DNA of 64,000 nucleotides from a virus (IMGVR_UViG_3300045988_120248:45063-109062), one strand, 5' to 3'; shown: positions 3,778 to 64,000, numbered from the stretch's first letter. Numbers and translations are program-made. The notes: generated by a model not told the origin, from the sequence alone.

Positions 3778-4150
3778 ATACGTTAATGCAACGCACATCA
3801 TTGAGGGAATCAACAAAGCACTTGACTCCCTACGGCGAGAAGATGGCAAGCTACCGGACACGGAAGATGTCGATGAATTGCTTCGATTCAGGAGCAAACT
3901 GGAAGCCGCGCCGGAAGCCCCAATTAGGGATTATCGTCCAGAGAACGCACCGTTTGTGACGTTCAACGGCAATCCCGTTGGACTTCTGAAAAGCATACGA
4001 CCTGATATTACTGAAATTGTAATTTCAACCAGCTACTGCGGATGCGAGTTTGTAAACGGTGAACTTGCATCAGTGGAAATTCTGAAAGAACCGTTGGACA
4101 AATTGGAGGAACGATATGGTAAAGCTATCGACGATTCAAAAGCACAATAA
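3770..4150 (+). CDS. hypothetical protein
   Basis: ORF 3725..4150 trimmed to GTG 3770 after GGAGGG; overlaps the previous stop. Confidence 0.4.
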   Translation: MDKYVNATHIIEGINKALDSLRREDGKLPDTEDVDELLRFRSKLEAAPEAPIRDYRPENAPFVTFNGNPVGLLKSIRPDITEIVISTSYCGCEFVNGELASVEILKEPLDKLEERYGKAIDDSKAQ

Positions 4151-4475
4151 CCCGCACGCCATCCTTCGGAGTGATAACGAAGGACCCGGAGGCGGCTATC
4201 ACGATTACACTGTGATGGATGTGGACAGAAAAAGTGTGATTGCACAGATAAAATTTCAGAAAGGCGCACGAAATGACCCGAATGCGCGTCATGGCGTTTT
4301 AGATGCTGACCTTTTGGAAATCGTGCGTGATAGGCTGACGGCCTTCAACAAGGGCGAATTTGCCACACGGGAGAACGCCTGCGCAATCACGCATATTGAA
4401 GAAGCCCTCATGTGGATGGCGAAACGCGCCGATGATCGGGCGGAACGCGGGGTGTTGGGGACGTATAACAAATGA
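4116..4475 (+). CDS. conserved phage protein of unknown function (119 aa)
   Basis: ATG after GGAGGA; helical C-terminal half ending RGVLGT looks like a recurrent phage family that I cannot name with confidence. Confidence 0.5.
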   Translation: MVKLSTIQKHNNPHAILRSDNEGPGGGYHDYTVMDVDRKSVIAQIKFQKGARNDPNARHGVLDADLLEIVRDRLTAFNKGEFATRENACAITHIEEALMWMAKRADDRAERGVLGTYNK

Positions 4476-5870: not shown

Positions 5871-5899
5871 TTGCATTTTTGCTGATTATATGGTATAAT
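5871..5899 (+). promoter_or_regulatory. SigA-type promoter of the late (structural) operon
   Basis: TTGCAT (5871-5876), 17-nt spacer, TGgTATAAT extended -10 (5891-5899), in the only sizeable gap before terminase. Confidence 0.6.
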
Positions 5900-5925: not shown

Positions 5926-5986
5926 GCGCTGTTCCGGTGCTTTTCCTATGGGAAAGGTATCGGGACAGCGCTTTTTGCGTTTTTTG
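5926..5986 (+). terminator. intrinsic terminator in the late-operon leader
   Basis: Long imperfect stem gcgctgttccgg...tcgggacagcgc (5926-5971) followed by TTTTTGCGTTTTTT; lies between the promoter and ATG 5995. Confidence 0.55.
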
Positions 5987-5994
5987 GAGGTAAA

Positions 5995-6942
5995 ATGAGC
6001 GAAAATGTCAGCGAACTGGAACAGCAAGAATATTATGCGCAGCTTGCAAAAAAGACCTCGGAAAGTCTTGCATATTTCTACTGCTGCATCAAGTATGATG
6101 TTCCTTTTGCGCGCGACTGCGTACCGCGCGATGAAGGGCGCGACAAGTGGCTTTCGTACCTCGATAACCTCCATATCAAGAAACTGGATGCCAGCAAGAG
6201 CGGCGAGCGTTACGGCTTCCTCGATGGCTTGACCGACATCACGAAGATATTTGGCGAGTGTCTGAAAGACGGAGAGTTTACGAAGGCCGTCTATGCAGAA
6301 AAAAATGCGCAGTCGGCCAAAACTGGCACGGTGAGGCAGCGGAAAGATTGGGGAACCGGAAACGACGAGCATCCATACACCAATGAAGACTATGCAGAAT
6401 TCGACAGAATATACACTGTCCTTGCATCTGACTTGGGAGGTGAAGATGCTCTGAGTGCGAAACAGCAGCTTATCCTTCGCAACGTTTCCAAATGGACGAA
6501 GCAGATGAACGATGCTTCCGATGCTGGAAAATTCGATGCAGCGAGAAAACTGTCAGCCATCATACAGGAAAACTTGGCGAGCGATAACCTCAGAAAGCGC
6601 GATGCCAAACCGGTAGAGGAAATCCGGGTTGACGGCATTACTGAACGGCTCGAAAAAGCTGGCCTGATGAAGAACGGTAAACCGGTAGACCCCGATACCG
6701 CATTTGAACTGCTTTTCCACAGAAGACCAAAGTATTCTTACACAAAAGACGCTGCGGAACAGATGCTTCTCGCAATTATCAACACGTCGCGTATGAATGA
6801 TTCGCTCCCGGAATTCTCAACGCTACCGGATAGCGCAAGAATCAAAGATGATCTCCATGAGTTCGCAGAAGAACCGAATGAAATGGAGAAAACCGCATAT
6901 GAAGGGTTCGGCTATGTGAAGATGCCCCCCGTAAAGGCATGA
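5995..6942 (+). CDS. putative terminase small subunit (positional call)
   Basis: First gene of the late operon, immediately upstream of the large terminase; no motif verified. Confidence 0.35.
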   Translation: MSENVSELEQQEYYAQLAKKTSESLAYFYCCIKYDVPFARDCVPRDEGRDKWLSYLDNLHIKKLDASKSGERYGFLDGLTDITKIFGECLKDGEFTKAVYAEKNAQSAKTGTVRQRKDWGTGNDEHPYTNEDYAEFDRIYTVLASDLGGEDALSAKQQLILRNVSKWTKQMNDASDAGKFDAARKLSAIIQENLASDNLRKRDAKPVEEIRVDGITERLEKAGLMKNGKPVDPDTAFELLFHRRPKYSYTKDAAEQMLLAIINTSRMNDSLPEFSTLPDSARIKDDLHEFAEEPNEMEKTAYEGFGYVKMPPVKA

Positions 6943-10912: not shown

Positions 10913-11011
10913 GCAATGAAACACTGGGGATAGGGTAGCTCCTGAAAAGCGGTTCCCTTACCGCCTTCCCCTGTTTTTCAATAAGGGAATTACTGAAGGG
11001 AGTAATTGAAC

Positions 11012-11890
11012 ATGCCGAGGTTCCAAGACCTTACTGGAGTGAAATTTGGCCGCCTGACGGTTATTGAACAGGCCGGGCGTGACAAAAATAGATCAATTAA
11101 ATGGAAATGCAGATGTGAGTGTGGGAATTATACAACAGTCCTTGGAGGAAACTTACGAAAAGGGACTAGCAGAAGCTGCGGATGCCTTGCAAAAGAAATT
11201 GCAAGAGAAAGAGACAGTGCGGAAAATTTGACCGGCAGAACCTTTGGTCGGCTTACTGTCCTGTATCGTGTGGAAAATGATAGTAGTGGGAAGCCGAAGT
11301 GGCTGTGCAAATGTGAATGCGGAAATATGAAAGCTGCGTCAGCGAAACATCTCAAACACGGAGACGTAAAGAGTTGCGGCTGTCTTCCGAAAGAACACGC
11401 AAAAACACTGCATAAAATCAACGAAACACATGGAAAGAGTAACACTCGTTTATATCAGGTCTGGGAAGGTATGAAACAACGATGCAGACCAACATCTAAA
11501 AATTACGGCGCTCGTGGCATAAAAATGTGCAAAGAATGGGAAAACTTTGAACCGTTCTTTGAGTGGGCAATGTCAAACGGCTATGATCCTGGCGCAAAGC
11601 GGCTCCAATGTACACTTGACCGAATCGACGTAAACGGTGATTACTGCCCAGAAAACTGTAGATGGATTGACAACCTATCACAGCAAAACAATCGTCAAGA
11701 TAATCACAAAATTACGTTTAATGGGGAAACACACACGCTTGCGGAATGGTCAAGGATACTCAATATGAAGTATGAAACACTTATAGCCAGAATCGAAAGA
11801 TATGGCTGGAGCGTGGAAAAAGCGCTGTCCATACCAACTGTTTCACCACATGACAAGCGACGATGCGCACATGGAGGTACAAATGATTGA
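11012..11890 (+). CDS. free-standing DNA-binding / homing-endonuclease-like protein
   Basis: Two GRLTV...KW.C.CECGN...SCGC repeats, then a Y..W..M..RC ... YGARGI..C.EW motif. Sits alone between portal and head genes with noncoding flanks. Confidence 0.4.
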   Translation: MPRFQDLTGVKFGRLTVIEQAGRDKNRSIKWKCRCECGNYTTVLGGNLRKGTSRSCGCLAKEIARERDSAENLTGRTFGRLTVLYRVENDSSGKPKWLCKCECGNMKAASAKHLKHGDVKSCGCLPKEHAKTLHKINETHGKSNTRLYQVWEGMKQRCRPTSKNYGARGIKMCKEWENFEPFFEWAMSNGYDPGAKRLQCTLDRIDVNGDYCPENCRWIDNLSQQNNRQDNHKITFNGETHTLAEWSRILNMKYETLIARIERYGWSVEKALSIPTVSPHDKRRCAHGGTND

Positions 11891-12047
11891 TTATGTCAAA
11901 AAAGAAGACCTCCACATTATCAACAGGGCGCTTAATAATGGCAGTGATGTGAAGATTCAGCTCACAAAAGACGGATACCGTATCACGGAAGATACCATGA
12001 AAGTCCTGAAACGAGTGGCAATTAGTCAGGAAAAAATGGAAAAATAA
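11883..12047 (+). CDS. hypothetical small protein (54 aa)
   Basis: ORF 11802..12047 trimmed to ATG 11883 after GGAGG; ATGA overlap with the previous stop. Confidence 0.4.
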   Translation: MIDYVKKEDLHIINRALNNGSDVKIQLTKDGYRITEDTMKVLKRVAISQEKMEK

Positions 12048-12054
12048 AAAATTG

Positions 12055-12136
12055 GACCTGCGCCGAAAGAGCGGTGCAGAAGAGCCGAAGAGGGCTACCG
12101 ACACAGTGAAATGTGCCGGTAGCCCTCTTTTATTTT
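12055..12136 (+). promoter_or_regulatory. conserved hairpin + intrinsic terminator element, copy A
   Basis: 7-bp stem 12058-12064/12073-12079 with loop GAAAGAGC, linker AAGAGCCGAAGAGGGCT, then a 15-bp terminator stem and TTTTATTTT. Homologous to 26733-26812 and 41305-41394. Confidence 0.55.
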
Positions 12137-12156
12137 GCAAGGAAGGAGACAACGAA

Positions 12157-26732: not shown

Positions 26733-26812
26733 GACCCGTGCCGAAAGAGCGGCACGGAAGAACCAGAGAGGGTTATCGACACATTGAGCTGTGTCGGTAG
26801 CCCTCTTTTTTG
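26733..26812 (+). promoter_or_regulatory. conserved hairpin + intrinsic terminator element, copy B
   Basis: Stem 26736-26742/26751-26757 with the identical loop GAAAGAGC; two compensatory base-pair changes relative to copy A; terminator stem then TTTTTT. Confidence 0.55.
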
Positions 26813-38301: not shown

Positions 38302-39657
38302 AACCCCTGCCTTTAGGCATGGGGATATAAGGCGCTCCAGCTGATGTCAAAAACAATGCGTTCGACCGGGGGAAGCATTGGAAATATGACATAATGTAGC
38401 ATGAAAGGCGGTGATTTCATGGAATATAGCTATAAGTTTCGCATCTACCCTACAAAGGAACAGACATTGCAGATTCAGCGTACCTTTGGATGCTGCCGTT
38501 TCATCTACAACCACTATCTTGCGGCACGCATTGAGTCCTATGAGGCGAACCGAACGACGTTCGGCTATAACGCCTGTTCCGCTGATATGACGGTTTTGAA
38601 AAAGTCACTTCCATGGCTCACCGAAGTAGACTCCACTGCGCTTCAATCCTCGCTGAAAGACTTGGATACCGCCTATCAGAACTTCTTTCGTCGAGTGAAA
38701 TCTGGCGAAAAGCCGGGATTCCCACGATTCAAAAGCAAACGTGACCACCGCAAAAGCTACAAGAGCAAAGCCGTGGGCGCGAACATCAAGGTCTTGGACG
38801 GCGCGGTTCAACTTCCGAAACTCGGCAAAGTCAAGTGCCGCATCAGCCGAAAGGTTGAGGGAAGAATCCTCTCCGCGACGGTATCGCAAAACCCAAGCGG
38901 CAAATATTTCGTATCACTCTGCTGCACTGACGTTGAAATCGAGCCATTGCCGAAGACCGGTGCTGTGATTGGCGTTGATATGGGACTGAAAGCGTTCGCA
39001 ATCACGTCCGAAGGGACGGAATACCAGAACCCGCGCTATTTAGCCAAGAACCAGAAGAAACTTGCCAGACTGCAACGGCAGCTCTCCCGAAAATCAAAGG
39101 GGAGCAACCGGCGCGAAAAAGCGAGGATTCAGGTGGCACGGCTGCATGAGCATATCGCAAACCAGCGCAGCGACATGATGCACAAACTGTCAACGCAGCT
39201 CATCCGCGAGAACGATGCGATCTGCATCGAGGACTTAGCACCGCAGAACATGGTCAAGAACCATCACCTTGCGAAGTCCATCAGCGACGCATCTTGGGGT
39301 GAGTTTCGACGGCAGTTAGAATACAAAGCTACGTGGTATGGGAAGAAAGTAATACCAATAGACCGGTTCTTCCCATCCAGTCAGCTATGCTCCTGCTGCG
39401 GGTATCGGAATACCGACACGAAGAATCTGGCGGTGCGGGATTGGACGTGTCCTGAATGTGGGACGCACCATGACCGGGACATCAACGCAGCAAAAAATAT
39501 TCTAAGCGAGGGATTGCGACTACTGGCCTAGCCCAAACATACGGTAGGGCGGGACACGTCCGAACCTATACGCTCGGGGAGACTGTGTAAGACGCCGCTA
39601 CGGCGCGACGGTCGTAGAAGCGAGAATCCCCCGGCTTTAGCCGTGGGGATTGTCAAT
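38302..39657 (+). mobile_element. IS200/IS605-family element carrying tnpB only (no tnpA)
   Basis: Subterminal hairpins of the same design at both ends: LE cccc-tgcc-ttta-ggca-t-gggg (38304-38325), RE cccc-cggc-ttta-gccg-t-gggg (39628-39649). RE ends GTCAAT as in the other copies. The left boundary is approximate. Confidence 0.75.
38419..39531 (+). CDS. tnpB: TnpB RNA-guided endonuclease (IS1341/OrfB type)
   Basis: [13 protein letters not shown]-terminus, RuvC motifs GVDMGLK / IEDL / [12 protein letters not shown] and CSCCG...CPECG zinc finger. Start trimmed to ATG 38419. Confidence 0.85.
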
Positions 39658-41152: not shown

Positions 41153-41315
41153 CAAATGGTTGATTCGCAGATGGCTTGACGCTATCAGAAATGATACGAA
41201 ATCGTGCAAAGCTTCCATTGAATCTGCATACGGAATCAGCGCCTGCATCCACTTCTTCTGTGGCAAGTGGATTCCACCCCCCATTGCAAAAAAACAGAAT
41301 TATTTCCTGCGCTGA
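41145..41315 (+). CDS. hypothetical small protein (56 aa)
   Basis: ORF 41040..41315 trimmed to ATG 41145 (ATGATTGA overlap with the previous stop). Confidence 0.35.
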   Translation: MIDKWLIRRWLDAIRNDTKSCKASIESAYGISACIHFFCGKWIPPPIAKKQNYFLR

Positions 41316-41394
41316 AAGAGCGGTGCGGAAGAGCCGAAGAGGGCTGTGAGCGAAGCGAAAGAGGGCTACGTTCACTGCTCTCTTTCTCTTTGCT
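41305..41394 (+). promoter_or_regulatory. conserved hairpin + terminator element, copy C
   Basis: Stem 41307-41313/41322-41328 (kept by G-U pairs), the same GAAAGAGC loop and linker, partial internal duplication of GAAGAGGGCT, then a stem and a U-rich tail. Confidence 0.5.
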
Positions 41395-44614: not shown

Positions 44615-44658
44615 AAAAGAGAACCGGGGGATAATTGAATCCCTCGGTTCTTTGTATG
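44615..44658. terminator. bidirectional intrinsic terminator between the convergent blocks
   Basis: 11-bp stem gaaccggggga / tccctcggttc (44621-44650), A run upstream and TTTGTATGTT downstream; lies between stops at 44612 (+) and 44659 (-). Confidence 0.65.
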
Positions 44659-45506: not shown

Positions 45507-45558
45507 TGTGTTTGCCTCCTATAATTTTTGATGTGCCCGTGAGGGCTTACAATTTTGA

Positions 45559-45585
45559 TTCTACCGGAAAATCAGATTTGTCCCG
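45559..45585 (-). promoter_or_regulatory. recurrent promoter-like motif CGGGACAAAT-N10-GGTAGAA, copy 1
   Basis: Gene-strand sequence CGGGACAAATCTGATTTTCCGGTAGAA, 53 nt upstream of ATG 45506. Confidence 0.45.
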
Positions 45586-46096: not shown

Positions 46097-47185
46097 TTAT
46101 ATACCCCTCATTTCCCGCACATTCTGTGCCACGATTTTTACTGCGTCATCAATGATTTTGATATCTCGTTCGAGGTTCAGCCCGTAGTTATTGCCCATAT
46201 CATTTGCATTCGGGTCGAGTTTGTAATCGAAGCTGAACCGGATGGCCGACCGGGCGCGTTCCTCAGAATACCCCGAAGCGAGAAGCACACGGGATGGCGC
46301 GTTATCACCGCTGGAACACGCTGCGCCGGATGAAACCATCAGACCGTCAGCCGAAAGCCGCAGGACGAGCGCATGGTTCTCAATTCCGGGGAAAGAAATG
46401 TTTGCGATATATGGAGACTGTCCAAACTGATGGCCAAAGCATTCCAAACCGTTTAGCTGCGCATCTGGTAGTTCATTCATAATACCATCGATCAAGTGGT
46501 TATGCAACACCCTCGTTGTTTCTGCGAACCAGTCCAGATGATTTGTGCGGAATTCCAATGCGACAACAAACGCAGCGGCAAGCGGAGCGGATGGCGTTGC
46601 AAAATGGAAGTTCTCTGTGACTTCATCCGGATTTCGTGCAATTAACACACCGATTCCAATCGGAGCACCGAATTTATGACCCGCGCCGCATATGAAATCT
46701 ATTCCGCTTTCACGGAAATTGATTTCCTGTTTCCCCATGGCTGCGGTGCAGTCGGAGAATGTCAAGTCATACCCCGCAAAAGCGCTTTTCAAATCATAAA
46801 TTTCACCGGTTTCGTTGTTTGTGTGGATATGAGATATACCGCGCAGTTTGTTTCCAATACGGCTTATTGGCATCATGCGGTCTGTAATGCTTGTCACTGC
46901 TGCGTGCTCCGCACTGCTCGCAGAAATACCCTTGCATTTGTCATTCATAATCGTGAGCGCAATCCTGCACGCTTCCGTTGCGGACGAAACGAAGAAAACT
47001 TGGTCCGGCTCACAGCCCAAGCACAGCGCTACGCCCTTGCGGGATGCTTCAAATGCCTTTCTGGTAGCTTGCCCAAAGGAATGTATAGAATTCGGGTTCC
47101 CCCATACCGGCACCTGCGCCCCTACGAATGTTCCCATCGCGCCCTTAAGCGGGGGAGAAGTAGCCGCGTAATCCAAGTAAATCAT
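46097..47185 (-). CDS. class V aminotransferase / NifS-IscS-like cysteine desulfurase
   Basis: YLDYAATSP, GNPNSIHSFG, PLP-lysine motif GAGHKFGAPIGIGVL, active-site loop SSGAACSSG. Confidence 0.8.
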   Translation of the reverse strand: MIYLDYAATSPPLKGAMGTFVGAQVPVWGNPNSIHSFGQATRKAFEASRKGVALCLGCEPDQVFFVSSATEACRIALTIMNDKCKGISASSAEHAAVTSITDRMMPISRIGNKLRGISHIHTNNETGEIYDLKSAFAGYDLTFSDCTAAMGKQEINFRESGIDFICGAGHKFGAPIGIGVLIARNPDEVTENFHFATPSAPLAAAFVVALEFRTNHLDWFAETTRVLHNHLIDGIMNELPDAQLNGLECFGHQFGQSPYIANISFPGIENHALVLRLSADGLMVSSGAACSSGDNAPSRVLLASGYSEERARSAIRFSFDYKLDPNANDMGNNYGLNLERDIKIIDDAVKIVAQNVREMRGI

Positions 47186-47727
47186 GCGCCCAACTCAACC
47201 TCCTTCGGCCAACGCGGCAACGCAGCGGCACAGATTTTTTCGTAAATTTCTTTCTGTGCAAGCAGCGTATCGCGTTCCTTCTGAATCACACGATATGCGT
47301 CTTCTAATCCGAATGGCTCGTTGAGTGGAACACGGATCTTTTCTGACTCTGACGCTTGAGAGGCAGTTACAATGCCAGTAGGGGGGGCGTTAAGCCCCAA
47401 GGAGACGATAACCGCTTGGTCAACAAGTTTCATTTCATCGGATGTCAACGTGCAATAGTAGTTCTCCAGACGATCCTTATCGACCGTGTAGATTGCTTCG
47501 CAAAGCGCGGTCGACTGCTTGCCCATCGTATCAATGGAAACGTGCGTGGGCATTGGCTTTTTCTCGGCAGTCGTGAGATAAACAATCTCTACAGTGCCGG
47601 AATATGTATTGTTTTTTTCATTACTGACAATAATCGCGGGGCGATTCTTTTTTTGCTCGGAACCGACAGCAGCATAGTCCTGACGAACCCAGAAAATGTC
47701 GCCCCGATGGATTCTTATATCCTGCAT
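47182..47727 (-). CDS. PemK/MazF-fold toxin-like protein with about 65-aa C-terminal extension
   Basis: RGDIFWV...GSEQKKNRPAIIVSN...VEIVYLTT N-terminal domain; stop overlaps the next ATG (ATGA). Confidence 0.6.
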   Translation of the reverse strand: MQDIRIHRGDIFWVRQDYAAVGSEQKKNRPAIIVSNEKNNTYSGTVEIVYLTTAEKKPMPTHVSIDTMGKQSTALCEAIYTVDKDRLENYYCTLTSDEMKLVDQAVIVSLGLNAPPTGIVTASQASESEKIRVPLNEPFGLEDAYRVIQKERDTLLAQKEIYEKICAAALPRWPKEVELGA

Positions 47728-48087: not shown

Positions 48088-48163
48088 TGGTGGGCCGTCT
48101 CGGAGTCGAACCGAGATTTTACCAGTTATGAGCTGGTCGCTCTAGCCTTTGAGATAACGGCCC
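48088..48163 (-). tRNA. tRNA-Met or Ile2 (anticodon CAT), CCA encoded
   Basis: Acceptor GGGCCGT/ACGGCCC, anticodon arm ACCAG-CTCATAA-CTGGT, T arm CTCGG-TTCGACT-CCGAG. Lacks initiator features; one weak D-stem pair. Confidence 0.85.
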
Positions 48164-48947
48164 ATCTATAACCGGCTTGACGTACCGGCCGTGAGGTCTT
48201 GCGCGCAGACCAACGGCAAATTCAGGCGGTTGCACACCGGCGCTTGTGTGTCAACAGTCCTTAAAGCGTCCCCAAAGGTGCTGCCTAGTTTGGCGGATTT
48301 CAGTTCGCCCAAAGCGTTACGAAATTGTGCGGATTCATCCGGTTCGACCACTAGTGAGTCTTTCCCGGCAAGCTGAACGGAACTTTCCAAAATGGACTTG
48401 TGCCGTCTCTACGAAGGTCTATATCCGCTTGACCTTTACCTTTTCGGACCGAAACGCGCAAACGGCTTTTACTGCGCTGTCGGCACAAGTGTTACCTTGC
48501 CCCGGTGGGTTTTCACCACTATATTCTGTTAGTTTCGGTAGCCCACGCATCAAGCGTAGGGGATATGATGGCTGTTCATCAAACTCCATTTAACTCAGTC
48601 AAGCACCAACCTCCAACTTATTGGCCAATGCTTATCTGCTGCACCATCATTTTTTGAGCGATTAGGTACAAGCAATCGCTCGAACTTGGCTTCTTGGGTT
48701 CTCCCCGTCGTTGGACGGGCGGATTTGCCATCTCCGGAAAGGCTTCCGCATTGCCATTGCAGCGTAGCCATTATCCCGCTTTCGACCCATATAGCTGCAT
48801 TTTGCCTCGTTCTCCTTGGACGCTGTGGGTCAGCGTCTTTAGCCGGTGGCGCTACGCTCCACGATCACGCTATTGCGTGCGTGAATGGATAGCTGTATGA
48901 TTCCCACCATGTTAATTTGTCGCGCGGAGAACCCCAACGGGCGGCTA
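48164..48947 (-). ncRNA. candidate large structured noncoding RNA between two tRNAs
   Basis: 784 nt with no credible ORF on either strand; many local helices; abuts tRNA-Met and tRNA-Gln without spacer. Family untested. Confidence 0.4.
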
Positions 48948-49024
48948 TGGCAGGGGTAGCAGGATTTGAACCTACGAATATGGGAGTCAAAGTCCCATGC
49001 CTTAGACCGCTTGGCGATACCCCT
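48948..49024 (-). tRNA. tRNA-Gln (anticodon TTG), CCA encoded
   Basis: AGGGGTA/TACCCCT acceptor, TGGGA-CTTTGAC-TCCCA anticodon arm, GTAGG-TTCAAAT-CCTGC T arm; resembles bacterial tRNA-Gln. Confidence 0.9.
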
Positions 49025-49178
49025 TTGTTGCCGGCCTTTCCCGGCTGTCAGAGTGCTTACATTCCCGAAGAACTCGTCCGTGGTATCGGCTATATCAACC
49101 CGACGACACCGCTGCCAGATGCGGAGGTTTCATTCCAACTACGGTTTAACGAGTAACAACCTCGTATGTTGGTGGGCA

Positions 49179-49208
49179 TGGTGGATGCGGCGAGGATTTG
49201 AACCCCGC
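49179..49208 (-). pseudogene. tRNA-like 3' module (T arm + acceptor 3' strand + ACCA) without an adjacent 5' half
   Basis: GCGGGG-TTCAAAT-CCTCGC then CGCATCC-A-CCA; no complementary 5' strand within 90 nt. A matching GGATGTG lies at 50587-50593 beyond the tnpB element. Confidence 0.45.
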
Positions 49209-49246
49209 ACGGTGCAGGCAGTATGCGACGAGCTTTGTTCCCGTCC

Positions 49247-49420
49247 GAGGTGGCTGCTTCAACCCCATTGACACTTCCCGTGGAAAAACAGGGGATTCTC
49301 GGTTCAGCGACCGTTGCGCCGTAGTTGCGTCTTACATGGTCTCCACGAGCGTATAGGTTCGGGCGTGTCCCGCCCTACCGTATGTTTAGGCTAGGCCAGT
49401 AGGCGCATTCCTTCGTGCAA
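49247..49420 (-). ncRNA. TnpB omega RNA scaffold plus guide, copy 2
   Basis: Same conserved block after the tnpB stop, ending GTCAAT at 49267; the RE hairpin is partly degenerate; guide would be 49247-49266. Confidence 0.5.
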
Positions 49421-50601
49421 AATGTTCTTCGCGGCATTTACATCCCGGTCATGGTGTGTCCCACATTCAGGGCACGTCCATTCCCGTACCGCCAGATTCC
49501 TTGTTCCGGTATTCCGATACCCGCAGCAGGAACATAGCTGGCTGGACGGGAAGAACCGGTCTATCGCTATGACTTTCTTTCCATACCACGCGGCCTTGTA
49601 CTCTAACTGCCGTCTGAACTCGCCCCATGCTGCGTCACTGATGGACTTCGCAAGGTGATGGTTCTTGACCATGTTCCTCGGTGCTAAGTCTTCGATACAG
49701 ATCACATCATTTTCCCGGATGAGCTGCGTTGACAGCTTGTGCATTATGTCCCCACGCTGGTTTGCGATATGCTCATTCAGCCGTGCCACCTGAATCCTTG
49801 CTTTTTCGCGCCGGTTGCTCCCCTTTGATTTTCGGGAGAGCTGCCGTTGCAATCGGGCAAGTTTCTTCTGGTTCTTGGCTAGATAACGTGGATTTGGATA
49901 TTCTATTCCATCGGACGTGATTGCAAACGCTTTCAATCCCATATCAACGCCGATCACAGCGCCGGTCTTCGGCAGCGGCTCAATCTCCACGTCGGTACAG
50001 CAGAGCGATACGAAGTATTTTCCACTAGGATTTTTGGATATCGTGGCAGACAGAATTCGGCCTTTGACTTCTTTTGAAACCCGACATTTGACACGCCCCA
50101 GTTTCGGAAGCTGGACGGCATCTTCAAAAACTTTTATACCGCCTTTTGATTTATAACTCTGTCTATGCTCACGTTTGCTCTTAAATCGCGGAAATCCGGG
50201 TGGCATTCCATTCTTGACGCGGCGAAAAAAATTCTGATATGCGTCATCCAAATCCTTCAGCGATGATTGGAGCGCTGTAGAATCGGCCACTCGAAGCCAC
50301 GGAAGAAACTTTTTTAGTTGCGTCATATCCGCGGAACATTCACAATAGTTCATCATCTTGGAATCTTGTTCATATGCGTTTTGCCTCATTCTGAGATAGT
50401 AATTCCAAATGAACCGACAGCATCCGAATATCTGTTGAATCAGACAGGTTTGGGAATACGAAGGATATATTCGGAATTTATAACTGTACTCCATTATCTC
50501 TCCTTGCATATTTTTTATGATTTCCATGGAAACGTGTGTCACGCTTTCCTGCACCGCATACCCTTGCTGCCTTTTCCATTCGGCCACACATCCGTATGTT
50601 T
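49267..50601 (-). mobile_element. tnpB-only IS200/IS605-type element, copy 2 (rearranged left end)
   Basis: The RE matches copies 1 and 3. The region upstream of tnpB is unrelated to copy 1 LE but has its own bulged hairpin (50528-50549). The left boundary is uncertain. Confidence 0.55.
49391..50494 (-). CDS. tnpB: TnpB RNA-guided endonuclease, copy 2
   Basis: Starts [12 protein letters not shown] after AAGGAGAG. The C-terminal about 200 aa are nearly identical to copy 1 and the N-terminal part is diverged. RuvC and zinc-finger motifs intact. Confidence 0.85.
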
Positions 50602-50877
50602 CTATTCGTTGTTGCTTTTGGGCACTAGGTACATTGCGTAAGAAATGCTTTCGCTGAACCTCACCGGATACTTTTCCATGAGATATACCATGAGTTCGTC
50701 CAAATCCAGCGCGTGTACCGAACCTTCTAGTTCTGGATATTTCCCAATGATGCCGTGCTCCCCAATATCCCAAGGATCGCGCCATCCAATTTCGTAGCAC
50801 TGTTTCAGAATATCTGACAGATCGTATTTATCCAACTCCGCTGCAGCTTGCTTTGCTTCCAAACAATAGTCAAACAC
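50602..50877 (-). CDS. hypothetical protein (91 aa)
   Basis: ORF track; GTG start after GAAAGGGTGG. Confidence 0.45.
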
Positions 50878-51075
50878 CGTCGTACCACCCTTTCCTTTTT
50901 GGCCGTCTTCTCGCTTAGATTGTCACATCACGGGCATCCTCAACAGAACCATTACGTTGTGGGCTTTACGTTCTCTCGAACCTCAATCCACCTACCGTGC
51001 AGTTTTCAGCGGGCATTTTCGTTCTCTGTGTGGCTCGACGGTCGCGCACACATCATCCGGGAGCGACCCGGCAAC

Positions 51076-51162
51076 TGGCGGCAGATGGAGGTGTCGAACC
51101 CCACGGCTTTCACCGCGCACTGTTTTCAAGACAGGCTCCGAGGCCGCTCGAATTCATCTGCC
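51076..51162 (-). tRNA. tRNA-Ser (anticodon TGA), class II, CCA encoded
   Basis: GGCAGAT/ATCTGCC acceptor, loop CTTGAAA, long variable arm, T loop TTCGACA. Confidence 0.85.
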
Positions 51163-51166
51163 GTAT

Positions 51167-51243
51167 TGGCTGGAGGTTTTGCACCATGCACGATCAGGAG
51201 TCGAACCTGACCATTTGGGGACTCGGACCCCGCTGCACCTCCA
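51167..51243 (-). other. 77-nt tRNA-sized, non-canonical cloverleaf-like element ending GCCA
   Basis: 7-bp closing stem TGGAGGT/ACCTCCA + G + CCA. Three internal hairpins: GGGG-TCCGAGT-CCCC, TCAGG-TTCGACT-CCTGA, TGCA-TGG-TGCA. The T-loop-like arm is in the wrong position for a tRNA. 4 nt from tRNA-Ser. Confidence 0.35.
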
Positions 51244-51494
51244 AGGATAACCGTTACCCTATATTGCGCGGAATTGGTTTCGTCACCGCACTATGAGCCT
51301 TTAACCAAGCCTGCTCTTTGTCTGTTTCCCGAATTATTGAACAGCAGTCAACGTTGCGTGTTACGCGCGATATTCACCAACGATTTTTGCCCGCGCTGTT
51401 GTGTTTGGCGTACCAGCGCAACGAGGACTTTCATGGGTTCCGATTTTCTACACAGCGGCACGCTTGTGCGAACTAGCCAAACTCGGATGGTATC

Positions 51495-51818
51495 TCAACA
51501 CCTTTCGGTGATGAAATCTTTCAATACTTTTTCTGCAAATTCAATCTGCGGCCGGATGTGTTCATAGTGGCCTGAATACAAGATTGCTTTGATACAGCAG
51601 ACGCTATTGATCGCATCCTTCACGTCCTTGTCATTGCTGCCAAGCACGGCATAGACGGGAAGATTGTCTTTCTGAATTACATCACGATACCATGATTTGA
51701 ACCCCGTGCAGATGTCCGTTTGATGGGAATAGCCGGATTCAAACCCTGCGCTATATATCTCAAATAGGAACGATTTGATCTGCGCGTCGCTGAAATCGAC
51801 TGTCCTGACATCGTTCAT
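51495..51818 (-). CDS. hypothetical protein
   Basis: ORF 51495..51869 trimmed to ATG 51818 (GGAGG upstream, ATGA overlap with the previous stop). Confidence 0.5.
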   Translation of the reverse strand: MNDVRTVDFSDAQIKSFLFEIYSAGFESGYSHQTDICTGFKSWYRDVIQKDNLPVYAVLGSNDKDVKDAINSVCCIKAILYSGHYEHIRPQIEFAEKVLKDFITERC

Positions 51819-52138
51819 GCCCCTGCCTCCGTGTACCTGCCCTTGCACGCTTGCCAACATAATTGGCATGATTCAAAAATGCAAGGGAGCCCTACGAATT
51901 CCGGTAGAGAGCATCGTTCGTTCATCAAATCCGGGTACAGAGCCTTCATTGCGAAAAGCTTCCTTGCTTCGTCAGGACCGACAAACATCGGCTTTCCTTC
52001 CGGCGCGTAGTGCCGAATCTGAACCGGAATCTCATCCCGCGTGTCGTAGTAGTTGACAGAAACTGGGCGAGATGCACTGTCTACGACAACGTAGACGTTT
52101 TTTGTGCCGTTGGTTAAGTAACGAATATCAAGACTCAT
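51815..52138 (-). CDS. hypothetical protein
   Basis: ORF track; ATGA overlap with the upstream gene. Confidence 0.5.
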   Translation of the reverse strand: MSLDIRYLTNGTKNVYVVVDSASRPVSVNYYDTRDEIPVQIRHYAPEGKPMFVGPDEARKLFAMKALYPDLMNERCSLPEFVGLPCIFESCQLCWQACKGRYTEAGA

Positions 52139-52392
52139 GTTTTACCTCCATTTGAGTCAAATTTGTTTCTGAGCTTTTCCAGCGCTTGGTTGAACTCAAA
52201 CTTCATAGCAGCATAATTTCGGTCTTCAAGTTTTGGAACGTAGACTTTTTCTCCGCAACTTATACAACAGGGCCTATTCTCAATATAGCCGAAACGCACC
52301 CCACAAACATTCACTCTCACGCGCTGAAGCTTTATCAAATAATCTGTCGTCTTACCGCACCTGATGCAGTACGCAGTATTGTTTTCGTCCAT
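52135..52392 (-). CDS. hypothetical zinc-ribbon protein
   Basis: CIRCG ... CCISCG motifs. Confidence 0.5.
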   Translation of the reverse strand: MDENNTAYCIRCGKTTDYLIKLQRVRVNVCGVRFGYIENRPCCISCGEKVYVPKLEDRNYAAMKFEFNQALEKLRNKFDSNGGKT

Positions 52393-52762
52393 CGTTTTTA
52401 CTCACTTCCCACCCATTTTTCACAGTCATCCACTCTTGGCCCCAGAGCCGCCATTACTCAACGCCTAGACGCGGCATTGCGCCGTTGGTCTGCGTCGCCA
52501 CACCAGTTTTTCTTCCATCTTTCACGCCTCACAGCGAGCCGTATGGAAGCCAAGAGGGGATTGACCACGGAACTTTTCAGCCCTGCGCCGGCGCATCGGT
52601 CGCATCCGTTTCTTTTTACACACATTAAGCCGGGGCCAGCTAATTAGATTCGCAATCTGTCGTATTCGCGCTACCTACAGATTGAGCGGATGGCTGGATA
52701 TATCGTTTCACCAAAGCCTTTGGAACCTCAAAACTTTCCCTGGGTCCGCCACAATACCCATG

Positions 52763-52836
52763 TGGAGTGCGTGAGGAGAATCGAACTCCCACCATCAGAT
52801 TGGAGGTCTGATGTTCTGCCGTTAAACTACACGCAC
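52763..52836 (-). tRNA. tRNA-Gly(TCC)-like with C at position 33
   Basis: Good cloverleaf (GTGCGTG/CACGCAC, D stem GTTT/GAAC, T arm GGGAG-TTCGATT-CTCCT, U73, CCA). The anticodon loop is CCTCCAA instead of CTTCCAA. Confidence 0.7.
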
Positions 52837-54839: not shown

Positions 54840-55656
54840 CCTTTGCCTTTGCTACTCAAAGCCGCGCCGGGCGACGCATTTCCATTGCTTTTCATCGCGA
54901 AGCCGTGCATCACCTCGCGGTTCCATGCCGCCGCTCGGCAAAGCCCTACCTAACTACTCCGTAGCTTTCCCTGCTTGGCCTAGCTAACCTGCTCCACTCC
55001 ATTTCTTTGCAACACTAAGCTCTGCCTTGATTTGACATGCCTGTGCGTAGTGATGCAACTCGTATCGCCGCCCAGCCGTCGCAGACCAAATCGATACTAT
55101 GCCTTTGCTGTTCCCACCGCTGCCGTGCCTTGCGAAGCAGCCCAGCGCGAGACTTCACCTTGCCTTTTCATAGTTCTACTTAACTCCGCTCCGCTGTTCC
55201 ATGGCTACCCGTTGCTCAACTAATCCGCTGCTCCGCTTAACTCCGCTCCGCCGTTCCATGGCTATTCACTGCTCAACTGTCCCTTGCCGTCGCTATGATT
55301 ATCAGGTCGATACACTTCCGTTGCTGTGCCATGCGAATCCGTGCAATTCCATCGCCATTTCAACGCAAGACAGCGCTTCGCGTTTCCGTTGCTGCATCTC
55401 GCTACACTTTGCTGCGCTGCACAATTCCGTTGATTCACGTCACTAACCCCCGCATCGCCCTTGCGTTTCTGTGCGCGGAGACTCTTTACTTTGCCATTCC
55501 TTTGCCGTGCTCCTCTGCGCATCGCAACGCCGCTGCTTTACTTTTCAACTCTTTACCGTTCCTTTGCTTTGCTTGGCAAAGCGGGGCCGGGCATTGCCGT
55601 CGCTACGCATTACAGAACCTCGCGATCCTGAACCGTTGCCCCGTTCGGCGGGCCAA
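54840..55656. repeat. 0.8-kb noncoding, strand-skewed, short-repeat-rich region
   Basis: No credible ORF; + strand about two-thirds pyrimidine in the lines counted; about 19 TTGC cores (YTTGCY); CCGTTGCT three times; related about 40-nt segments at both ends. Confidence 0.5.
55179..55292. repeat. tandem duplication, 2 x 57 nt
   Basis: Units start at 55179 and 55236 (cttaactccgctccgc.gttccatggcta......gctcaact...), about 42/57 identical. Confidence 0.6.
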
Positions 55657-56361: not shown

Positions 56362-56413
56362 TGTTTTTACCTCCATAAAATAATTGTTGTTGTGTGATTG
56401 CTTACATTTACTG

Positions 56414-56440
56414 TTCTACCTGGATTCTGGATTTGTCCCG
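56414..56440 (-). promoter_or_regulatory. recurrent promoter-like motif, copy 2
   Basis: CGGGACAAATCCAGAATCCAGGTAGAA, 53 nt upstream of ATG 56361. Confidence 0.45.
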
Positions 56441-56524
56441 GAAAATCTACGCTTTTTGCGGGTATCTTGCGGGAACTTACGGAGATTTTGCGGGTTCAAA
56501 CGCTTGCTCCGCAAGTGTTTTGGA

Positions 56525-57552: not shown

Positions 57553-57593
57553 TGTTTTGGCCTCCTGTATGGTGTTTTGTCTTACACCTACGT

Positions 57594-57620
57594 TTCTACC
57601 GAAAAAATGGATTTGTCCCA
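57594..57620 (-). promoter_or_regulatory. recurrent promoter-like motif, copy 3
   Basis: TGGGACAAATCCATTTTTTCGGTAGAA, 42 nt upstream of ATG 57552. Confidence 0.45.
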
Positions 57621-58298: not shown

Positions 58299-58349
58299 GT
58301 GAACGATCTCCTTTCTTTTCTGCATGGGCATTTCGCCCTGTGGTTTCTG

Positions 58350-58376
58350 ATCTACCGGGTTTTTTCGTTTGTCCCG
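58350..58376 (-). promoter_or_regulatory. recurrent promoter-like motif, copy 4
   Basis: CGGGACAAACGAAAAAACCCGGTAGAT, 52 nt upstream of ATG 58298. Confidence 0.4.
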
Positions 58377-58392
58377 CTGATCGCAAGACTTT

Positions 58393-58752
58393 TCATGCTG
58401 ACATCCGGCGCTCGATTTCGCTTGCGCACTGGAAGACGAACATGACATTTGTGGGTTTACCTCTGTTCGGATCGATTGAGTTTCCGAAGATCTCATACTT
58501 GCGCGGTGTGTTGACACCATCAAATGCCATTTCGACGGCATGGCGCATGCAACGTTCAACCTTGCTGCTCGTTTTGCTGAACCTCTGGGCAATGTCGCAG
58601 TACAAACCGCCGGGTTTCGTTGCACAGGTGCCTTTGTATGCCCCGTCACAGGCGCGCTTGACGGCTTCGGTCAAGTACTTATACCCGTCGAGATTTGCCG
58701 GAATCCCAAGCTCTTTGAAGAGATCGTAGATTGCACATTCTGTTTTAGTCAT
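58393..58752 (-). CDS. Spo0A C-terminal (DNA-binding) domain-like protein
   Basis: ...YCDIAQRFSKTSSKVERCMRHAVEMAF...FGNSIDPNRGKPTNVMFV... matches the Spo0A effector-domain pattern; no receiver domain. Confidence 0.65.
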   Translation of the reverse strand: MTKTECAIYDLFKELGIPANLDGYKYLTEAVKRACDGAYKGTCATKPGGLYCDIAQRFSKTSSKVERCMRHAVEMAFDGVNTPRKYEIFGNSIDPNRGKPTNVMFVFQCASEIERRMSA

Positions 58753-58803
58753 TATTTTGTTTTCCTCCTATAGTCTTGATTTCTAATTTTTGCTCTGCTT
58801 GGG

Positions 58804-59637
58804 TTAAGCGCTTGTCCCGCTGAGTTTGCTCACTGCAACCATGTTGTTGAACAAGACGGTCAGAATCGCCATCAGCCGCTTGTCCTGTGCGACGATGCCG
58901 AGTTTTGAAATTGCCGCGATATCGGCTTTCGTTGCACCGGTTTGTTCAAGACGCTTCCGTGCGTTTTCCAAACGGATATCGAGGCGAACGCCTGCCACTT
59001 CGTCAAGCTGCGCATAAAGATCATTGAATGTCTCGTTGAAATTTCGCCCAGTTTGCATACAAAATCCTCGAACGTTCCGGTTGAATTGAGATTTCCAGTT
59101 CCCTGCCGTTGCCGGCAGAGAAACCAGACTATCTAGCGCATCTTTGATAGTATCCACTGCCAGCGACGTTTCAGCGCTGCTTGCTTCAATCTCCGCCATA
59201 CGCCGTTCGGCCTCTTGCTGACGCATTTCAATATTGATTAGCGTTTGCAGCTGTGGGGATAAACTTGAAAACTGATTTTGCAGTTCGCGCGCTCTGAAGT
59301 ATCCGTTGACAAGCTGCTTTTGAACTTTCCATGCAAGCTCGTCAGTAAAGGCCTTTGCAAGCATGAGATACCCGGATTCCGTCATGAGAACAATGTCCGC
59401 ATCGGGGTTAAATCCATTTGGAGGGGTCTGTCCGAAAAACGGACGCACCTCCGAGCACTTAACCTTGAAGTAATCTTCTCCGTCGACGAAGTGCTCTCGG
59501 TTGTCGCTAAACCGCTTCCGCGCGGTTCCGCCTGGCCGCTTGTGTACTGCATCGATGTCCTTGAATGTCACGACACGCTGTCCGCGATATTCTTTAATTG
59601 CGATACTTGTGCTGTTGATGATTTCTGACTTCTGCAT
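58804..59637 (-). CDS. ORF6N-domain phage antirepressor-like protein
   Basis: IKEYRGQRVVTFKDIDAVHKRPGGTARKRFSDNREHFVDGEDYFKV typical ORF6N N-terminus. Confidence 0.7.
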   Translation of the reverse strand: MQKSEIINSTSIAIKEYRGQRVVTFKDIDAVHKRPGGTARKRFSDNREHFVDGEDYFKVKCSEVRPFFGQTPPNGFNPDADIVLMTESGYLMLAKAFTDELAWKVQKQLVNGYFRARELQNQFSSLSPQLQTLINIEMRQQEAERRMAEIEASSAETSLAVDTIKDALDSLVSLPATAGNWKSQFNRNVRGFCMQTGRNFNETFNDLYAQLDEVAGVRLDIRLENARKRLEQTGATKADIAAISKLGIVAQDKRLMAILTVLFNNMVAVSKLSGTSA

Positions 59638-63366: not shown

Positions 63367-63545
63367 TTTCGTGACCTCGCGGAAATGTTGACACTCCCCA
63401 CGTCTAAAGCCGGGGGATTCTCGGTTCAGCGACCGTTGCGCCGTAGTGGCGTCTTACATAGTCTCCACGAGCGTATAGGTTCGGGCGTGTCCCGCCCTAC
63501 CGTATGTTTTGGCTAGGCCAGTAGTCGCAAGCCCTCACTTAGAAG
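63367..63545 (-). ncRNA. TnpB omega RNA scaffold plus guide, copy 3
   Basis: Conserved block after the tnpB stop ending GTCAAC at 63387; guide would be 63367-63386. Confidence 0.55.
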
Positions 63546-64000
63546 GTTTTTCGCGGCGTTGATGTCCCGATCATGGTGTGTCCCGCATTCAGGGCACGTC
63601 CACTCCCGTACCGCCAGATTCCTTGTTCCGGTATTCCGATACCCGCAACAGGAACATAGCTGACTGGATGGGAAGAACCGGTCAATCTGTATGACTTTCT
63701 TCCCGTACCACGCGGCCTTGTACTCCAGCTGCCGCCTGAACTCGCCCCACGAGGCGTCGCTGATAGACTTCGCAAGGCGATGGTTCTTGACCATGTTCTT
63801 CGGTGCTAAGTCTTCGATGCAAATCACATCATTTTCTCGAATGAGCTGCGTTGACAGTTTGTGCATCATGTCGCTGCGCTGGTTTGTGATATTCTCATGC
63901 AGCCGCGCAACCTGAACCCTCGCTTTCTCACGCCGGTTGCTCCCCTTTGATTTTCGGGAGAGCTGCCGTTGCAGTCTGGCAAGTTTCTTCTGGTTCTTGG
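63387..64000 (-). mobile_element. tnpB-only IS200/IS605-type element, copy 3 (runs off the window)
   Basis: RE hairpin tcccc-cggc-ttta-gacg-t-gggga nearly identical to copy 1. Confidence 0.7.
63513..64000 (-). CDS. tnpB: TnpB, C-terminal part (5' end outside the window)
   Basis: The frame stays open to the window edge (...[51 protein letters not shown]...); near-identical to copies 1 and 2. Confidence 0.85.

Follow-up and report, generated by a model that had tools for sequence, protein, structure and literature searches.

Gene organization of the window and its late operon

The window, that is, the whole 64,000-nt stretch of DNA that was analyzed, represents a temperate phage or prophage from human-gut metagenomes. 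Its gene content includes an integrase, Rha and ORF6N regulators, three tRNAs, TnpB elements, and a MazF toxin, and the structural genes are of the SPbeta type (YonD_N, YonB, and YomX_C). A late promoter, which the consensus scan had not listed, was recognized upstream of the late genes by reading the sequence. It is the only strong sigma-70-type promoter in that region and the only one found for the operon of approximately 39 kb. Consensus promoter scans gave no stronger candidate on the plus strand, and their matches within the operon were not above those in shuffled sequences. A terminator hairpin in the leader starts no more than approximately 25 nt past the promoter and is followed by the first late gene and the rest of the co-directional operon. 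Both this layout and the sequence of the hairpin are kept across the clades of related phages described below. The layout resembles a Q-type arrangement, and no factor of this type was found; the ORFs just upstream of the late promoter were considered as a Q-like factor and rejected, since they are not conserved across the clades that carry the element described here. The coordinates of the features are listed in Table 1.

The element, which consists of two hairpins designated P1 and P2, occurs at three boundaries between the modules of the late operon. Copy A lies downstream of the portal gene, an HNH cassette, and a 54-aa ORF and upstream of the YonD/YonB head genes. Copy B separates the head genes from the tail genes, which include a 1678-aa tape measure, and copy C separates the tail genes from the lysis cassette (a 101-aa protein gene, then the endolysin gene). 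The copies start 10 to 13 nt past a stop codon within the long co-directional operon, lie 6 to 35 kb from the late promoter, and each abut a terminator. No sigma-70-like promoter was found in the 25 to 40 nt between each of these terminators and the next start codon. It therefore seems that the downstream modules depend on read-through. A sigma-70 promoter inside or upstream of the element was also looked for and rejected, as none was present in the copies, in the scans, or in the relatives. The operon ends in an ordinary terminator hairpin that carries no P1-P2; the module is thus missing at a terminator where read-through is not needed. The copy starts (12058, 26736, and 41307) are nearly evenly spaced, at intervals of 14,678 and 14,571 nt. 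This spacing is probably a coincidence because the relatives space their copies otherwise.

Table 1. Positions of the late-operon features in the window
Feature	Position	Strand	Description
Late promoter	5871-5899	+	TTGCAT-17 nt-TATAAT, extended TG; sigma-70 type; conserved in relatives
Leader terminator	5926-5985	+	20-bp stem (5926-5971) and U tract; without P1-P2
54-aa ORF	11883-12047	+	Stop codon 10 nt before P1 of copy A
Copy A, P1	12058-12079	+	CUGCGCCG [AAAGAG] CGGUGCAG; 8 bp, hexaloop 12066-12071; -13.1 kcal/mol alone
Copy A, spacer and P2	12080-12096	+	Spacer AAG; AGCC [GAAGAG] GGCU; P2 alone -5.3 kcal/mol
Copy A, terminator	12088-12138	+	Stem 12088-12105/12112-12129 with one A.C mismatch, loop GUGAAA, U tract UUUUAUUUU
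Copy B, P1	26736-26757	+	CCGUGCCG [AAAGAG] CGGCACGG
Copy B, spacer and P2	26758-26774	+	Spacer AAG; AACC [AGAGAG] GGUU; P2 alone -1.9 kcal/mol
Copy B, terminator	26765-26812	+	19-bp stem, loop UUGAGC, U tract UUUUUU
Copy C, P1	41307-41328	+	CUGCGCUG [AAAGAG] CGGUGCGG; three G.U pairs
Copy C, spacer and P2	41329-41345	+	Spacer AAG; AGCC [GAAGAG] GGCU; P2 formed in the minimum-free-energy structure of copy C
Copy C, downstream hairpin	41338-41393	+	Approximately 15-bp hairpin AGAGGGCUGUGAGCG/CGUUCACUGCUCUCU overlapping P2, then interrupted U tract UUCUCUUUG
Operon-final terminator	44618-44655	+	Ordinary hairpin at the late operon end; without P1-P2

Several other features of the window were recorded. 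Three TnpB (IS605 OrfB) genes are located at 38401-39531 (plus strand), 49391-50800 (minus strand), and 63513-63869 (minus strand), one of which has entered the late operon and lies between tail genes. Two TnpB genes share a repeat of 300 nt (49279-49578 and 63401-63700, 89% identity) that spans their 3' end and the region downstream. Between the minus-strand early genes, the motif TCTACC-N14-17-TTTGTCCC occurs five times on the plus strand (45537-45584, 56392-56444, 57572-57619, 58344-58380, and 58787-58823), and these repeats may be early promoters or operators. Four direct repeats of approximately 43 nt, two of them 88% identical, are present at 55179-55449 in the early region; they are iteron-like and could form a replication origin or an operator array. 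Cargo and accessory regions lie at 4116-4475, 58393-58752 (minus strand), 47182-47727 (minus strand), and 48088-52836. Besides the toxin (MazF/PemK) and the tRNAs (Met, Gln, and Gly), the cargo includes a homologue of the Acb2/Tad1 anti-CBASS hairpin protein, a 119-aa protein with a Spo0A C-terminal domain, an HU-like protein, and a class-V aminotransferase. Several cargo or accessory genes are common to the window and the phage record MT835520.1.

Structure of the element and its overlap with the terminators

An earlier note on this DNA had described three intergenic sites (12055-12136, 26733-26812, and 41305-41394), each with a 7-bp stem, an invariant loop, and a shared linker followed by a strong terminator hairpin and a U tract. 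The sites are indeed present at these positions, on the plus strand. A covariance model built from the relatives and run over the whole window with the filters off detected three copies and no more, each on the coding strand (12058-12096, 26736-26774, and 41307-41345), with scores of 58.3, 49.9, and 49.6 bits, and the next best match scored 12.4 bits. The fold z-scores of copies A, B, and C against dinucleotide shuffles were -7.2, -8.7, and -4.2, respectively.

The details of the structure differ from the earlier description. The stem of P1 has 8 bp rather than 7 and closes a 6-nt loop, AAAGAG, the end G and C of GAAAGAGC being paired. The linker is not invariant, as copy B reads AAGAACCAGAGAGGGTT, nor is it unstructured: it consists of the spacer AAG and the 4-bp hairpin P2. 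On the other hand, the two double compensatory changes that had been reported between the P1 stems of copies A and B are real (pair 2, U-A to C-G; pair 4, C-G to U-A), and pair 5 also differs (G.U to G-C). Both strands of P2 are changed in copy B compared with copy A, with the pairing retained. The terminator hairpins and U tracts were found as described for copies A and B, where the stems have 17 to 19 bp, whereas that of copy C is weaker and less certain and its U tract is interrupted. In the minimum-free-energy fold of copy C in the window itself, a competing hairpin wins, and in close relatives of this copy the P2-overlapping hairpin forms instead.

The loop and the 3' strand of P2 are at the same time the base of the 5' strand of the terminator (its lowest approximately 9 bp). 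P2 and the terminator are therefore mutually exclusive. The whole unit of copy A was calculated at -46.6 kcal/mol in the terminator form compared with -30.5 kcal/mol when P1 and P2 were enforced, and the corresponding values for copy B were -48.2 and -30.6 kcal/mol. In this enforced form, what is left of the terminator in copies A and B is no more than an upper hairpin of 9 bp, approximately 15 nt from the U tract. An overlap of this kind, in which P2 excludes the terminator, is the anatomy of a conditional terminator.

Conservation and covariation of the element in related phages

Related loci were retrieved using a 468-aa YonD-like protein (43 to 100% protein identity). Across these loci the element was found at the same place, with the 177-aa gene homologue downstream of it; the stems and loops of the element vary by clade, and the copies diverge along with the flanking genes. 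This synteny holds in phages in which the protein encoded next to the element shares no more than 50 to 99% identity. Approximately 20 closely related IMG/VR contigs were shown by a DNA pattern scan to contain the motif three times each, and other genomes carry two or three copies, including second sites in L177 and L221 and B sites in sister phages. Among cultured relatives, only MT835520.1, an unannotated faecal phage record, was related; it carries two copies, one at the A site and one before the lysis genes. The related loci (1.35 Mb) gave 63 hits, every one on the coding strand and none on the non-coding strand. Unrelated DNA (611 kb), chosen because it has a 17-nt pattern in common with the motif, gave nothing at E < 0.01 in the covariance search. 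When 185,579 species genomes were scanned with a pattern, 90 hits were obtained, each single and in an unrelated taxon; these are chance matches, since the element is not detected in them by the covariance model. In several relatives (L159, L172, L177, and L181), a AAUAGAGA-like motif is located just 5' of P1, and the same motif is present in the late leader of the window.

When 39 distinct copies were aligned, 98.4% of the cells paired, and compensatory double changes were seen in 11 of the 12 base pairs (8 of 8 in P1 and 3 of 4 in P2), values that are to be read with the fact that the alignments were fitted to the model, which favors structure. None of 500 shuffles matched the paired fraction, the number of compensatory pairs, or the covariation score, and slid controls reached only 30 to 50% pairing. 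Between clades the stems are unrelated in sequence (e.g., CUGCGCCG, UUGCGGUA, and CCACACCG). The observed strand pairs of P2 were AGCC/GGCU, AACC/GGUU, GACC/GGUC, GGCU/AGCC, AGCU/AGCU, and GACU/AGUC. Its 3' strand pairs downstream into a hairpin in 38 of the 39 copies, with a U-rich tail after 37 of the 38, and its 5' strand, which lies outside the terminator, still covaries with the 3' strand. The suspicion that the motif might be absent from related phages, or might lack covariation in a larger alignment, is thus answered by its synteny and by the 11 covarying pairs. Synteny, covariation, and terminator overlap also support the earlier proposal of an RNA-level signal, conserved in structure and coupled to termination, such as a conditional terminator or a site for antitermination.

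These data bear on a possible role of the element in DNA, as a protein site, a phage polymerase promoter, a mobile miniature element, or a recombination linker. The copies do lie at the module boundaries of mosaic genomes, and element A is present or absent together with the upstream small ORF as a cassette of approximately 400 bp. However, approximately 40 G.U pairs keep the pairing and would be A.C mismatches on the other strand; it follows that the folded strand is the plus-sense RNA. Moreover, the hits are confined to the coding strand, the copies keep syntenic positions and have diverged with their flanks, and there are no terminal repeats or target duplications. We give a DNA-level role next to no credence as the primary function, and a recombination-linker role may be a side effect of the element.

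Hairpins at transcript ends often stabilize mRNA, and the units might accordingly be constitutive, leaky attenuators that impose a fixed step-down of expression between modules, with P1 (and P2) serving as structures that stabilize 3' or 5' RNA ends or as ribonuclease processing sites and no regulated switch being involved. The strong terminators at the module boundaries speak for this explanation, as does the fact that no reader protein was found. It leaves unexplained, however, a marginal 4-bp P2 that covaries, has its 5' strand outside the terminator, and is kept in every clade. The co-varying loops described below are likewise unaccounted for, and the 8-bp P1 is too short for RNase III. 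Simple attenuation is therefore unlikely.

Hairpin-loop operators for phage translational repressors are well known, and the elements do lie in 5' intergenic regions, where a protein bound to P1-P2 could control the translation or stability of the downstream message rather than termination. The ribosome-binding sites, however, are 20 to 35 nt beyond the terminator, outside the conserved pairing, and the conserved partner of P2 is the terminator. A translational operator is accordingly a very remote prospect. An antitermination gate explains a P2 that both covaries and overlaps the terminator more directly than any of the alternatives considered here.

Variation of the loops and the linker

The P1 loop is AAAGAG in all three copies of the window. 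The loops of the relatives range over AAUUGG, AAAUGG, AAAGGG, GGAUAG, and GAGCAG, and only the final G and the purines at positions 1 and 2 are general. The P2 loops, GAAGAG in copies A and C and AGAGAG in copy B, are mostly GAAGAG, GAAUGG, or AGUGG among the relatives, one clade having 5-nt P2 loops. The linker between P1 and P2 has 3 nt in 30 of the 39 distinct copies (AAG in 25) and 4 to 5 nt in the other 9.

The loops of P1 and P2 were more alike within an element than between elements (0.76 versus 0.65; permutation p of approximately 0.001, with phylogeny ignored), and in one clade both loops are GGAUAG. This likeness fits a single reader co-evolving with its sites. The loops at the A and B sites of one genome can differ, e.g., GAGCAG and AAGUGG, which rules out strictly sequence-specific recognition.

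Relationship to the Rfam family gut-2

The earlier note could assign the element to no known family. Rfam lists a human-gut metagenome motif, gut-2 (RF02990), which is typed as 'Gene; sRNA', has no reported function, and has a gathering score of 39.8. Two sister-phage copies orthologous to copy B passed this score (L253, 48.7 bits; L257, 47.5 bits), whereas the copies of the window were all below it (A, 25.7 bits; C, 18.0 bits; B, no hit at E <= 1). The element thus counts as a divergent gut-2 member rather than a threshold member. The gut-2 consensus, with an 8-bp P1, a hexaloop, a 3-nt purine linker, a 4-bp P2, and a second hexaloop, corresponds column for column to P1-AAG-P2, and its source is also human-gut phage contigs. 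It differs in its consensus loops (AAUUGG and AAUuGG, compared with AAAGAG and either GAAGAG or AGAGAG in the window) and in that the Rfam model excludes the terminator. The first passes with Rfam, over the whole window at the gathering threshold and over a 1.5-kb stretch at E <= 10, gave no match to the element; the match to gut-2 emerged only in searches of approximately 100 to 330 nt and in the relatives. As a practical warning, the gathering score and speed filters of Rfam miss divergent members. A strict consensus-pattern scan of viral contigs for gut-2 gave one chance hit, inside a gene.

In the literature searched, no text was found on gut-2, its phage late-operon context, its terminator overlap, or its mechanism. 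The family presumably comes from the paper describing this class of motifs, the main text of which is silent on gut-2. The motif itself is thus already catalogued, and what is new is its context and the mechanistic reading. For an orphan family, the present data supply a setting, namely the late operon of widespread temperate phages of the human gut, where each genome has two or three copies at the module boundaries, always on the coding strand.

The Rfam type, and the fact that the element ends in a terminator, would suit independent sRNA genes of approximately 80 nt (P1-P2 plus terminator) that act in trans, e.g., by luring away an RNA-binding protein. Such a role has a precedent in EutX/Rli55, a decoy RNA carrying ANTAR sites (PMC8934654). 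However, no promoter-like -35/-10 pair was found upstream of any copy, the relatives inspected included, and the position of the elements, directly behind a stop codon inside a co-directional operon, does not suggest separate genes. Independent sRNA genes are therefore highly improbable.

Candidate reader and neighboring cassettes

No known RNA-binding antiterminator was found in the phage by Pfam or PHROGs. An ANTAR domain (PF03861) was absent from the Pfam-scanned ORFs of the window, which lie outside the structural genes at 20 to 34 kb, and from the precomputed Pfam annotation of eight related loci (L226-L229, L233-L234, and L260-L263).

The 54-aa ORF in front of copy A is a candidate lead for the reader. 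It is located upstream of the element in every element-carrying clade, and in two lineages the ORF and element A have been gained or lost as one cassette. In L225 the ORF is present without the element. It had no Pfam match and no sequence match in the PDB; its AlphaFold model (pLDDT 75) consists of a helix and a beta-hairpin with a basic tail and gave no significant fold match. Homologues occur in 921 blocks of the sequence collection.

Two other orphan RNA motifs were seen in this region. An int-alpA RNA (RF02996, 52 bits) lies directly upstream of a free-standing HNH endonuclease gene (11006-11890), and the pair (10923-11890) forms an insertion that separates the portal gene from the 54-aa ORF. 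In relatives, the whole int-alpA/HNH cassette is absent (e.g., L159), or int-alpA and an HNH-type gene are found at or near the same place (L184, L187, L223, and L222, the last with int-alpA at 6675-6741, 48.5 bits). This present-or-absent pattern suggests that the orphan int-alpA RNA may be part of a mobile HNH cassette. A DUF3800-VIII RNA (RF03075), which is absent from the window, occupies the space between the 54-aa ORF and the gut-2 element in several clades (L177, 9073-9139, 43.5 bits against a gathering score of 40.2; L204, 9266-9332, 31.8 bits), so that a single intergenic region holds two orphan Rfam motifs side by side. A role of P1 as a terminator on the reverse strand was rejected, as the A-rich tract upstream of it is not conserved in the relatives.

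Antitermination might alternatively be processive, P1-P2 being a signal of the nut or put type that loads a factor on RNA polymerase, or binds the polymerase directly, and makes it resist this and later terminators. Two adjacent purine-rich stem-loops recall lambda boxB and HK022 put, and a late promoter followed by a terminator is typical of Q- or N-type control. One element stands just before each terminator, however, and overlaps it in 38 of 39 copies, which a processive system does not need. Furthermore, there is no conserved boxA, the leader terminator has no element, and no N- or Q-like protein was found by PHROGs or Pfam among the submitted late-operon, flanking, and upstream ORFs. A processive signal is decidedly unlikely.

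Antitermination gates as a model for the late operon

Since the second hairpin competes with a terminator at three sites, each unit is most likely a factor-controlled gate between modules, and we lean towards reading the units as factor-dependent antitermination gates in the nascent late mRNA with a putative reader. That termination occurs at these sites, that a protein holds P2, and that graded or timed expression results, we infer from the anatomy. In the proposed sequence of events, P1 would be transcribed first and would fold into a stable 8-bp hairpin presenting a purine-rich hexaloop; three nucleotides on, P2 would follow as a marginal 4-bp hairpin with a similar hexaloop. Without the reader, the terminator would be favored by approximately 16 to 18 kcal/mol, and the host RNA polymerase would halt at the module boundary. 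A trans-acting reader, most likely a dimeric RNA-binding protein, might clamp both loops and thereby hold P2. Only the upper hairpin, distant from the U tract, would then be able to form, and transcription would enter the next module.

The three gates would stand between packaging and head, head and tail, and tail and lysis genes, behind a promoter with a leader terminator of its own, and would tie the later modules, lysis above all, to the reader. As the leader terminator lacks P1-P2, at least one further mechanism must exist.

A broader proposal, which we put forward as tentative and rather doubtful, is that gut-2 may be the RNA half of an undescribed phage antitermination system, in which a non-ANTAR reader of paired purine-rich hexaloops opens the three terminator gates in turn; the head genes, then the tail genes, and last the lysis genes would be released, and the gates would serve as a built-in timer. 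The putative reader could be encoded by the phage and co-evolve with the loops, or it could be a host regulator that links virion production to a host signal. Gut-2 becomes a testable mechanism, that of protein-held antitermination gates, and points to a putative RNA-binding antiterminator in gut Bacillota phages.

Comparison with known antitermination systems

In the lambda nut site, boxA precedes the boxB hairpin, which has a 5-bp stem and a GNRA-like pentaloop (GAAAA or GAAGA), and the partner is the arginine-rich N protein. HK022 put is an RNA of approximately 70 nt with two adjacent stem-loops that acts on RNA polymerase without a protein. Both nut and put are located near the promoter, act processively over many kilobases, and have no overlap with the terminator. 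Like lambda nut/N and HK022 put, the present element would use purine-rich stem-loops of a phage RNA to pass RNA polymerase over terminators. In contrast to lambda nut, its loops have 6 nt, and neither a conserved boxA nor an N-like protein is present. In contrast to put, it has 39 nt and overlaps the terminator.

The RAT targets of the CAT proteins (BglG, SacY, and LicT) are protein-stabilized RNAs that overlap the 5' half of a terminator (PMC12591593). A RAT is a single imperfect hairpin of approximately 30 nt read by a CAT-PRD protein, whereas the phage element has two hexaloop hairpins, and no CAT or PRD domain was found in the phage.

An ANTAR target is defined by two hexaloop hairpins with A1 and G4 in the loops, a linker of 5 to 12 nt, and a second hairpin that overlaps the terminator (PMC3369931). 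The phage element shares with the targets of EutV, AmiR, and NasR the tandem hexaloop hairpins, each of at least 3 bp, the overlap of the second hairpin with the 5' half of the terminator (38 of 39 copies), and the arrangement of several units along one long operon. The rule for the loops is A1/G4, G4 being the only base-specific contact (PMC3369931 and PMC8934654). The phage loops depart from this rule, as A1 and G4 occur together in 26 of the 39 P1 loops and in a minority of the P2 loops, and the gut-2 consensus has U4. In the window the P1 loops fit, whereas the P2 loops read G1/G4 (copies A and C) or A1/A4 (copy B). The linker of 3 nt also differs from the 5 to 12 nt of ANTAR targets, EutV being impaired by a linker of 3 nt or 14 nt (PMC3369931), and P1 is long, with 8 bp. 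In addition, no PF03861 protein was found in the phage, and the setting is a phage late operon rather than a metabolic operon. We conclude from this comparison that the element probably functions in the manner of an ANTAR target without belonging to that class. The eut operon in E. faecalis contains four ANTAR terminator units (PMC8934654). If the model is true, the phage gates would be the counterpart of this multi-terminator logic and a new way of ordering late expression and timing lysis.
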